Source of the DNA: a phage | Strand: one strand, 5' to 3' | DNA length: 1,024 nt | Sequence record: AM157367.1 | Shown: one piece after another, positions 1-959 of the stretch | How positions within the stretch are numbered: the first letter of the stretch is position 1 | Layout of the letters: every line of letters starts with the position of its first letter | Notes under the pieces: model-generated | What the model saw: only the letters and a program-made list of their open reading frames with translations | The model's database searches: none | Told to the model about the DNA's origin: nothing | Position numbers and translations under genes: made by a program

Positions 1-66
1 AAAAAATTCACGTATCCGGTCGCTGATGAGTGGCCGGGATTCTCAACAGTAATGGAGTGGACATGA
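1..66 (+). CDS. 3' end of an upstream ORF (partial; C-terminus ...KKFTYPVADEWPGFSTVMEWT*)
   Basis: Frame 1 is open from the window edge to TGA at 64-66, which overlaps the ATG at 63-65 of the next gene (ATGA), a classic translational-coupling junction. The other two + frames are also open from the edge (stops at 24-26 and 50-52), so the frame assignment is tentative. Too short to assign function. Confidence 0.35.
   Translation, partial: KKFTYPVADEWPGFSTVMEWT
53..56 (+). promoter_or_regulatory. Shine-Dalgarno (GGAG) for ORF1
   Basis: GGAG lies 6 nt upstream of ATG 63 (9 nt upstream of the adjacent in-frame ATG 66). This favours ATG 63/66 over the GTG at 30 used in the ORF track. Confidence 0.5.
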
Positions 67-518
67 TGGCAAAAATTCACGAGGTAAAGCTGCACGCAAA
101 ATATTTCGACCTTGTGCTGGAAGGAAAGAAACGCGCAGAGTTTCGGAAAAATGACCGTAATTATGAGCGCGGGGACACGTTGATTTCGCATGAATGGGGG
201 CAGGGTGTGTATACGGGGCGAAAGGTTGAAGCCCGGATAACAGATGTTACTGACCTGTCAGACTGGCTGGAAGACTATGTCTTGCTAAGTATTGAGCTGC
301 TTAGTACAGGCGCATATGAGATTGTGAACTGGAAAGAACTTAGTGAGCGTGGCCTGGTATTCAGAATTAATCATGAAATTATGCATCAGCTCGGCCTTGC
401 TGTTATGTATGAACCAGAGACGGGGATGTCTGGCGGGGCAATGGTTGCCACGGATGGAGCATGGAACTATTCAGATGAACAGATGGAGCGTGCACAGCAA
501 AACGGGTGGCTTGGATAA
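63..518 (+). CDS. ASCH-like / DUF3850-family domain protein with uncharacterised C-terminal extension (151 aa from ATG 63)
   Basis: Long ORF ending at TAA 516-518. N-terminal ~80 aa (MMAKIHEVKLHAKYFDLVLEGKKRAEFRKNDRNYERGDTLISHEWGQGVYTGRKVEARITDV...YVLLSIELL) fits my recollection of the DUF3850/ASCH-like pattern (H-E-hK-h-x-YF...G-K-x-x-E-h-R-K-N-D-R-x-a-x-x-G-D-x-L...YTGR). SD at 53-56 and ATGA overlap with the upstream ORF. Start could equally be ATG 66 or, less likely, GTG 30. Family assignment is from memory, not a search. Confidence 0.8.
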   Translation: MMAKIHEVKLHAKYFDLVLEGKKRAEFRKNDRNYERGDTLISHEWGQGVYTGRKVEARITDVTDLSDWLEDYVLLSIELLSTGAYEIVNWKELSERGLVFRINHEIMHQLGLAVMYEPETGMSGGAMVATDGAWNYSDEQMERAQQNGWLG

Positions 519-721
519 TGCACAGAATACCAGGCGAGATACCGCACCATAAAACTAAAAATATCAAGCTGATGGCTATTGTTCAGCGTTTACAGCGGAT
601 TATGGTCAACGAAAATCTGACGCCCGATGAGCTAGTCGGGTGTGCCGAAATAGTCCGGGATAATTACGGGCGGTTTAACCATATCGGTCAATCAAGAGTT
701 ACGCCACCACCACGCAGATGA
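518..721 (+). CDS. small basic hypothetical protein (67 aa; MHRIPGEIPHHKTKNIKLMAIVQRLQRIMVNENLTPDELVGCAEIVRDNYGRFNHIGQSRVTPPPRR)
   Basis: ATG 518-520 overlaps the TAA stop of ORF1 (TAATG). A weak SD-like GGTGG at 505-509 lies 8 nt upstream. Stop is TGA 719-721. Net positive charge (about 11 K/R against 6 D/E). Alternative starts are GTG 506 and ATG 572; the latter has no SD. No family recognised. Confidence 0.6.
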   Translation: MHRIPGEIPHHKTKNIKLMAIVQRLQRIMVNENLTPDELVGCAEIVRDNYGRFNHIGQSRVTPPPRR

Positions 722-863
722 TAGAGAACGCCCCAGTCGTGAAACTTGTGTTCAGGGCTGGCGGGGTTGAACAACGAGCGTAGCGAGGCGTTAGCTGGTT
801 ATCAGATTGACTCCTGGTATTATTGGCGCATAGCGCGGCCAGTAACCACAATGAAGCCGACTC

Positions 864-892
864 AAACCGGCAACCTGAATGCCGGTTTTTTT
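864..892 (+). terminator. rho-independent (intrinsic) terminator
   Basis: Perfect 9-bp stem AAACCGGCA (864-872) / TGCCGGTTT (880-888) with a 7-nt loop ACCTGAA, followed by a T-run (TTTTTTT, then ATGCGTTTTTT through 903). The T-tract is on the + strand only, so it terminates the + strand operon. Confidence 0.8.
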
Positions 893-928
893 ATGCGTTT
901 TTTCAGTATGTTCTGCCATTTTTAGCTC

Positions 929-959
929 TGCATGCACTACTGCATCGAATCGCATGCAT
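929..959. promoter_or_regulatory. cluster of palindromic GCATGC / TGCAT motifs (candidate operator or protein-binding site)
   Basis: TGCATGCA (929-936, 8-bp palindrome), TGCAT (941-945), GCATGC (952-957) overlapping ATGCAT (954-959). The two GCATGC hexamers are 22 bp apart centre to centre, about two helical turns. Lies just downstream of the terminator in ORF-poor sequence. Function is inferred, not demonstrated. Confidence 0.3.

Follow-up and report, generated by a model that had tools for sequence, protein, structure and literature searches.

The acidic tail of the P2-like phage protein Orf91 matches DUF7415, a mini-domain found widely in tailed phages

The stretch of phage DNA analysed here (sequence record AM157367.1; 1,024 nucleotides, referred to as the window throughout) carries a homologue of orf91 of bacteriophage P2, whose product begins with an ASCH/DUF3850 domain and ends in an acidic tail. 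We find that this tail, residues 81–150 of Orf91, is almost certainly one copy of the DUF7415 domain followed by a C-terminal helix that is specific to a subgroup of the family. An initial annotation, made from the sequence alone, had described a ~70-amino-acid (aa) acidic extension behind an ASCH-like domain and could not place it in any family. Its account of length and charge is borne out, as window positions 306–515 encode 70 aa (TGAYE...NGWLG) with an isoelectric point (pI) of 4.56, 10 Asp and Glu against 4 Lys and Arg, and a net charge of about –6.4; the residues it quoted are those encoded, apart from one extra leading Ser (303–305), a trivial one-codon slip. The statement that the extension belongs to no family, however, does not stand. 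Searched by itself against Pfam, the tail matches DUF7415 (PF24187) with 55.9 bits (E = 5e-15) against a cut-off of 27, and the score within the full protein is 54.1 bits; the match covers residues 86–128, and the Pfam model has 53 positions. The tail on its own is also matched by PHROGs 3954 (an 88-position profile), 2502 and 33705, and homologues carry the name 'DUF7415 domain-containing protein' in NCBI and UniProt. The tail is thus already known, both as a member of a catalogued family and as part of a near-identical, widely sequenced protein: full-length 151-aa protein clusters hold 126–662 members, and the pair PF24187 + PF12961 is precomputed in public databases. This removes a false lead, as the tail is no orphan module.

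A fixed motif runs through the family, with the consensus DWNE[LI]SxxGL[LIV]xRINxEI[LM]HP[LI]GLA...ETGxSxGA[LIV]VxxDGxWEY, in which the polar residues N, R, N, E, H, S, D and Y are invariant or nearly so. The tail holds every position of W-N-x-x-S-x-x-G-L-x-x-R-I-N-x-E-I-x-H-P-x-G-L-A...G-x-S...D-G-x-W-x-Y except P108, since the E. coli P2 group has Q for this near-invariant P of the HP motif. This group further differs from DUF7415 at large in an extra His, which creates an HExxH look-alike, and in the added, conserved C-terminal helix ending GW[LM]. The corresponding sequence A[KQ]xxGW[LM] is conserved at the C-terminal end of several homologues (P0047, P0048, P0051, P0055 and P0064), and the two-domain homologues of Salmonella and Enterobacter share 51–55% identity over the whole protein. 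Acidity is a property of the family and not of this member only, the median pI of DUF7415 being 4.77.

To describe the fold we modelled the protein with AlphaFold2. The whole of Orf91 (78-row alignment) gave a mean predicted local distance difference test score (pLDDT) of 88.6 and a predicted template modelling score (pTM) of 0.54; the ten-residue blocks of the tail (91–150) have pLDDT values of 88–96, with those of helix 137–145 at 93–95, and the linker block 81–90 has a value of 69. The pTM of 0.54 therefore points to two confidently predicted domains whose relative orientation is not fixed. Modelled in isolation, the tail reaches a pLDDT of 94.5 and a pTM of 0.79, with predicted helices at 9–14 and 17–29, strands at 31–35 and 42–47 and a further helix at 57–65 (tail numbering). 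The models thus show a compact, autonomously folding alpha-alpha-beta-hairpin-alpha module that is flexibly linked to the ASCH domain, in agreement with the initial view of the extension as a separate module. Comparison of this predicted fold with 350,542 PDB chains using Foldseek returned nothing significant (best E = 1.4 at a template modelling (TM) score of 0.34), and neither did a search of the tail sequence profile against the PDB (best E = 0.52). Several of the top PDB matches, chain X of yeast RNA polymerase II pre-initiation complexes, the MarR-family PcaV and MexR, and FoxO1, are proteins that we take to be winged-helix folds, and all of them are non-significant (E ≥ 1.4, TM ≤ 0.34); DNA binding by the tail is disfavoured by its acidic pI. 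Against BFVD, Foldseek found 10 fold matches at E ≤ 1e-3 with E-values down to 1e-6, and the named ones are all DUF7415 proteins or gp92 of phage Wphi. The TM scores of the DUF7415 matches are mostly 0.75–0.82, with two at 0.68–0.72, and that of the truncated Wphi gp92 is 0.46. DUF7415 is therefore a family without a solved structural relative.

The family only becomes visible with a sufficiently sensitive search: with the tail alone as query, a word-indexed search for homologues gave near-identical fragments only, and an exhaustive HMMER search of 1.84 billion proteins (tail alone, E ≤ 1e-3) was needed to reveal it. The latter yielded 195 homologous cluster representatives aligned over tail residues 5–60. 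Among the 144 representatives that could be classified the domain stands alone in 45, is N-terminal in 47, C-terminal in 38 and internal in 14, so that, as the initial annotation had suggested checking, the extension does occur both as a stand-alone gene and fused to other domains. A profile search gave 528 proteins, the best of them stand-alone proteins of 57–100 aa from Pseudomonas, Aeromonas, Vibrio, Salmonella and Citrobacter; one stand-alone Pseudomonas homologue has 69 aa. By tblastn the domain is present in 792 of 50,697 phage genomes (~1.6%), including T5 and T5-like phages, RB43/RB16-type and Klebsiella T4-like phages, the Burkholderia phage BcepSauron and P2-likes. DUF7415 thus circulates widely in tailed phages, either as a stand-alone protein of 60–90 aa or at either end of other proteins, and is an autonomous, mobile and conserved acidic mini-domain. 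What remains is a gap of a different kind, namely a domain that is present in ~1.6% of sequenced phage genomes with a confidently predicted fold and no solved counterpart. P2 offers a convenient system for finding its function because it is genetically tractable and carries the gene directly behind gpA. No paper containing 'DUF7415', 'PF24187' or 'Aeh1ORF298c' was found in the searchable literature.

A Rosetta-stone test supports an obligate partnership of ASCH and DUF7415 in part only. The two are encoded by separate genes near each other in P2-like prophages of Aeromonas, but among 87 diverse viral loci an ASCH fusion was found at 20 and a separate DUF3850 gene nearby at 1, and 66 have no DUF3850 within 4 kb. 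As a positive control the DUF3850 profile used here detects the Aeromonas protein with an E-value of 1.8e-19. DUF7415 thus functions independently of ASCH, and the P2 fusion is one of many architectures. Indeed, compared with DUF7415 at large, the fusion behind ASCH seen in Orf91 is a minority arrangement also among the cluster representatives (3 of 142).

The N-terminal part of Orf91 is a DUF3850/ASCH core of ~80 aa, as initially annotated. It matches PF12961 with 60.2 bits (E = 2.2e-16; cut-off 22.9) and PF04266 with 42.6 bits (E = 1.1e-10; cut-off 21.2), and the N-terminal 80 residues share 39% identity with the 83-aa stand-alone ASCH protein 3iuw (sequence match 3.9e-12). The predicted fold agrees, 3iuw superposing with a TM score of 0.89 and a root-mean-square deviation of 1.4 over 80 columns (Foldseek E = 2e-8). 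Because this 83-aa protein superposes on residues 1–80 alone, the N-terminal domain is complete without the tail. More distant likeness is seen to the ac4C amidohydrolase YqfB, ZmASCH, YTH and EVE, again to the N-terminal 80 residues only, and neither these nor 3iuw carry or resemble the Orf91 tail. In a survey of ParB-CTPase folds DUF3850 is described as a PUA-like domain that is often fused to such folds in prophages.

The proteins to which DUF7415 is fused, and the genes beside which it lies, give some indication of the processes in which it may take part. Among the 142 representatives the identifiable fused domains are a dATP/dGTP pyrophosphohydrolase (3), DUF3850/ASCH (3), an Rv2179c-like 3'-5' exoribonuclease (1) and a thymidylate kinase (1), together with PGDYG, DUF551 and a ClpX-type zinc finger (1 each); when the partner regions of 10 further fusion proteins were compared with Pfam, only DUF7415 itself was found. 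Within two genes on either side of DUF7415 at 36 dereplicated viral loci, Phage_GPA and DNA methyltransferases are the commonest neighbours (8 each), and NUDIX and primase/helicase genes are also present. P2-like prophages of Aeromonas encode DUF7415 (81 aa) and DUF3850 separately, in genes that lie downstream of gpA and two open reading frames (ORFs) apart. A 186-like prophage of Salmonella (locus L010, 6001–7195) has a PAPS-reductase-family gene immediately upstream of gpA, and its first 8 nt overlap with a stand-alone DUF7415 gene; these two genes may work as a pair. A T4-like Klebsiella phage carries the DUF7415 gene between nrdD and nrdG. T5 has two adjacent genes, ORF098 (139 aa) and 'Aeh1ORF298c-like' (130 aa; locus L013, 2416–3237), both encoding DUF7415 and located in the early region upstream of the origin-binding protein, with a Sir2-like gene just upstream of the pair. 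Each T5 paralogue has two Pfam-matched stretches, which suggests a gene duplication together with an internal domain duplication and hints that the domain may form a dimer; a narrower in-house profile sees only the C-terminal copy in these proteins. The T5 pair and the 85-aa proteins of RB43/RB16-type and Klebsiella T4-like phages thus place the same domain in the early regions of virulent phages, and unlike Orf91 they have no ASCH domain. DUF7415 is in this way expressed from the early or replication module in many phages.

Taken as a whole, the DUF7415 identity combined with a role in binding is likely the best explanation of the tail. As to the mechanism itself, we tentatively propose that DUF7415 is a binding or adaptor module, and not an enzyme, that acts via a conserved polar surface, although we would not be surprised to see this part fail. 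The surface would include R100, E104 and H107 on one face of helix 2 (i, i+4, i+7), as placed by helical-wheel arithmetic, together with S122, D130 and Y135 of the hairpin region. Its target would be a partner shared by many infected cells, most likely one that is part of, or produced by, phage DNA replication or nucleotide metabolism. In Orf91, which would be translated together with gpA from the early replication operon as its start overlaps the gpA stop, DUF7415 would serve to tether or regulate ASCH, whose fold recognises RNA or modified nucleosides. Several observations argue for this proposal. The core of only ~55 residues is small for an enzyme and favours binding over catalysis, the invariant polar residues in a fixed motif suggest a specific binding surface, and the acidity of the family disfavours direct nucleic-acid binding. 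A mere linker or oligomerisation tag is disfavoured as one third of the representatives are stand-alone, and a role in replication or nucleotide metabolism is suggested by the few identifiable partners and neighbours, which belong to nucleotide or DNA transactions.

A number of points weigh against this proposal. The partner of DUF7415 is postulated, and binding is something we infer throughout. The nucleotide-enzyme theme is built on few cases (8 of 142 representatives) because most fused regions have no Pfam family, and in P2-like prophages of Pseudomonas the stand-alone gene is flanked by gpL and gpX, which puts it in the late operon and outside the replication module. A small catalytic or metal site would be an equally good reading of the strongly conserved E/H/D/S set, and the placement of R, E and H on one helix face is arithmetic, not a measurement on the model coordinates. 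Finally, the description of orf91 as 'essential' goes back to one sentence in a preprint's methods, which cites no source and offers no evidence.

In a bolder version of the proposal DUF7415 would be a new fold, a small, widely distributed acidic phage 'plug' that binds one universally conserved bacterial or phage target in replication or nucleotide metabolism; the stand-alone proteins would inhibit or hijack this target, and the fusions would bring ASCH, MazG-like, exonuclease or kinase domains to it. We consider this version unlikely. If it is true, P2 Orf91 would provide its first example in a model phage that is open to genetics. The main rival, somewhat less probable still, is an inhibitory role in the conflict with the host, in which the tail and the stand-alone proteins would be small acidic inhibitors of a host defence or takeover target, with ASCH providing sensing or targeting. 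Such a role would fit small acidic proteins that are encoded in early or accessory positions and are common in both virulent and temperate phages, the frequent DNA methyltransferase neighbours, which are often anti-restriction genes, and the speculation by the authors of the ParB-CTPase survey that DUF3850 fusions act in anti-defence. It would also fit the location of orf91 within the gpA–gpQ interval, the defence hotspot of P2 described by Rousset et al. (PMC9122126). However, PADLOC-DB 2.0 gives only PDC-M11B at E = 0.029 over 20 residues of the N-terminal domain, a large survey of P2 with the DefenseFinder anti-defence models reports only Anti_RM and Anti_CRISPR (28 elements), and orf91 is part of a conserved backbone that 674 E. 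coli records have in common up to approximately position 795, the cargo varying after that point. The label 'anti-CBASS Acb1' on one homologue is supported by neither sequence nor profile, and the motif is highly conserved across hosts, which is unusual for fast-evolving anti-defence proteins; it occurs in Enterobacteria, Vibrio, Pseudomonas and Burkholderia, and in a Streptomyces phage by fold match only. The initial suggestion of a defence or anti-defence effector thus finds no support in the PADLOC comparison, in the backbone position of the gene or in the ~55-residue core.

The remaining alternatives concern the nature of the tail itself. The sequence H103-E-I-M-H107 fits the HExxH pattern, and its E and second H are invariant or nearly so in the family, as would be expected if the tail were a mini zinc metalloprotease or another metal-dependent enzyme. 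Most homologues, however, have R, K, T, N or Y in place of the first His; the family consensus reads RINREILHP, and the two-domain proteins of Salmonella have YEVLH. There is no third ligand motif, no peptidase family match at E ≤ 1 and no metalloprotease fold match, and the small core also speaks against it; an enzyme of this kind is therefore very improbable. We give yet less weight to a reading in which a longer ASCH domain simply continues into the tail, and regard it as practically refuted, even though the Pfam ASCH profile is matched at only 2–67 of its 103 positions and YqfB, ZmASCH and other canonical ASCH proteins are 100–150 aa long. The superposition of 3iuw on residues 1–80 alone, the occurrence of the tail without ASCH in most homologues, the confident folding of the tail by itself and the lack of any ASCH, PUA or YTH structure that aligns to it all argue for a separate domain. 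Least credible of all, to the point that we practically dismiss it, is a lineage-specific, disordered acidic tail without a function of its own. The tail is indeed acidic and C-terminal, and a 93-aa DUF3850 protein without it is annotated in Wphi, but its high pLDDT with defined secondary structure, its occurrence in 195 representatives and the 51–55% identity of two-domain homologues are those of an ordered, conserved domain, and in Wphi the tail is still encoded as gp92. The extension is accordingly neither part of a longer single domain nor a disordered tail confined to one lineage, the two outcomes that the initial annotation had named as counting against a distinct module.

The features of the window are collected in Table 1. 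The mechanical ORF runs from 30 to 518, and the biological start is the ATG at 66–68, as PGAP has it in E. coli CUPF09; the ATG at 63 is ruled out as a conserved start because a P2 record reads ATA at 63–65. The stop codon of gene A and the start of orf91 share bases (TGATG), and PHROG 1812 spans the whole protein (E = 4.5e-81). The P2 gene orf91 and the Wphi genes for gp91 and gp92 are the same gene in the same position directly after gene A. In Wphi, orf91 (93 aa, DUF3850) and gp92 (64 aa) are annotated separately (locus L001, 4063–4578), whereas the copy in the window is intact. Compared with the window and P2, the Wphi sequence has several 1-nt insertions in homopolymer runs; these cause the split, which is probably a sequencing error in the 2003 record.

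Table 1. Features of the 1,024-nucleotide window (positions are those of the window)
Feature	Position	Strand	Remarks
3' end of replication gene A (gpA, replication endonuclease)	1..66	+	stop TGA 64-66; annotated gpA end in Wphi, P2 and CUPF09
GGAG ribosome-binding site of orf91	54..57	+	8 nt upstream of ATG66; read from sequence
orf91-homologue coding sequence (CDS)	66..518	+	150 aa + stop; ASCH/DUF3850 then DUF7415; PGAP CDS in CUPF09
Minimal ASCH/DUF3850 (PUA-like) domain	75..293	+	residues 4-76; PF12961, PF04266, 3iuw
Inter-domain linker	300..326	+	~residues 79-87; length and sequence vary among homologues; indels in two-domain alignment
DUF7415 core	318..485	+	residues 85-140; two helices + beta-hairpin (predicted); motif NWKELSxxGLVFRINHEIMHQLGLA...ETGMSGGAMVATDGAWNY
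C-terminal helix (residues 137-145, predicted) + GW[LM] end	474..515	+	beyond Pfam model; kept in enterobacterial subgroup
Downstream 67-aa ORF	518..721	+	ATG overlaps orf91 stop (TAATG); PHROG 11386, E 8.4e-39
Terminator-like hairpin + T-run	864..898	+	9-bp stem, 5 G-C pairs, then TTTTATGCGT

By Megablast the window corresponds to the right-hand end of P2-like phages (Peduovirus: P2, Wphi, P22H4 and Yersinia phages), whose records are 96–98% identical to it at the nucleotide level over positions 1–795. This stretch is found in 672 of 5,426 complete E. coli genomes, and the full 1,024 bases are matched in 5 of them only; past ~795 the window diverges from most P2-like phage records, and it is there that cargo varies. 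orf91 is thus conserved backbone adjoining gene A and not variable cargo. In annotated relatives the end of gene A is followed by the orf91 homologue ('DUF3850 domain-containing protein') and then by a small hypothetical ORF. In E. coli CUPF09, one of the five full-length matches, the portal gene Q is the next gene. What we take to be the 19-nt cohesive-end sequence of P2 is matched at 19 of 19 positions (0 expected by chance) 28 nt past the end of the window (locus L003, 3273–3291). As the sequence in the five full-length matches goes straight to cos and the portal gene, the gpA–gpQ hotspot is without cargo in the prophage of the window.

The 67-aa ORF behind orf91, to which it is coupled, is kept in P2-like phages and is labelled hypothetical protein in CUPF09; it has no Pfam, NCBIfam or PADLOC match. 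NCBIfam likewise has no model for the two domains of Orf91. The hairpin further downstream probably ends the early operon, and an Rfam scan of the window gave no match at E ≤ 1. CUPF09 annotates a short minus-strand 'hypothetical protein' (approximately window 792–956) that overlaps this hairpin and may be spurious.

Several singleton database proteins (P0023, P0025 and P0028) switch from orf91 into the +1 frame, window 343–552 on the plus strand (...GCLAGQWLPRMEHGTIQMNR...). They look like frameshift errors or pseudogenes and not like evidence of programmed frameshifting.

The 85-aa homologue of Klebsiella phage Roth27 is labelled 'anti-CBASS protein acb1' (locus L012, 2992–3249). Comparison with Acb1 (T4 57B) gave an hhalign probability of 0.6% and a BLASTP E-value of 0.46, and a search of its sequence against PDB chains returned none that was significant, the best match being an unrelated beta-propeller at E = 0.88; the label appears to be a misannotation.

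Finally, the Aeromonas prophages mentioned above (loci L007–L009, ~5498–7270) have a common gene order after gpA, in which a 166–170-aa ORF is followed by DUF7415, a 76–78-aa ORF and DUF3850. The array then ends with a 111-aa ORF in L007 and L008, and with 82- and 110-aa ORFs in L009. The DUF3850/ASCH protein of these prophages has a different C-terminal extension of ~80 residues, to which no family is assigned.

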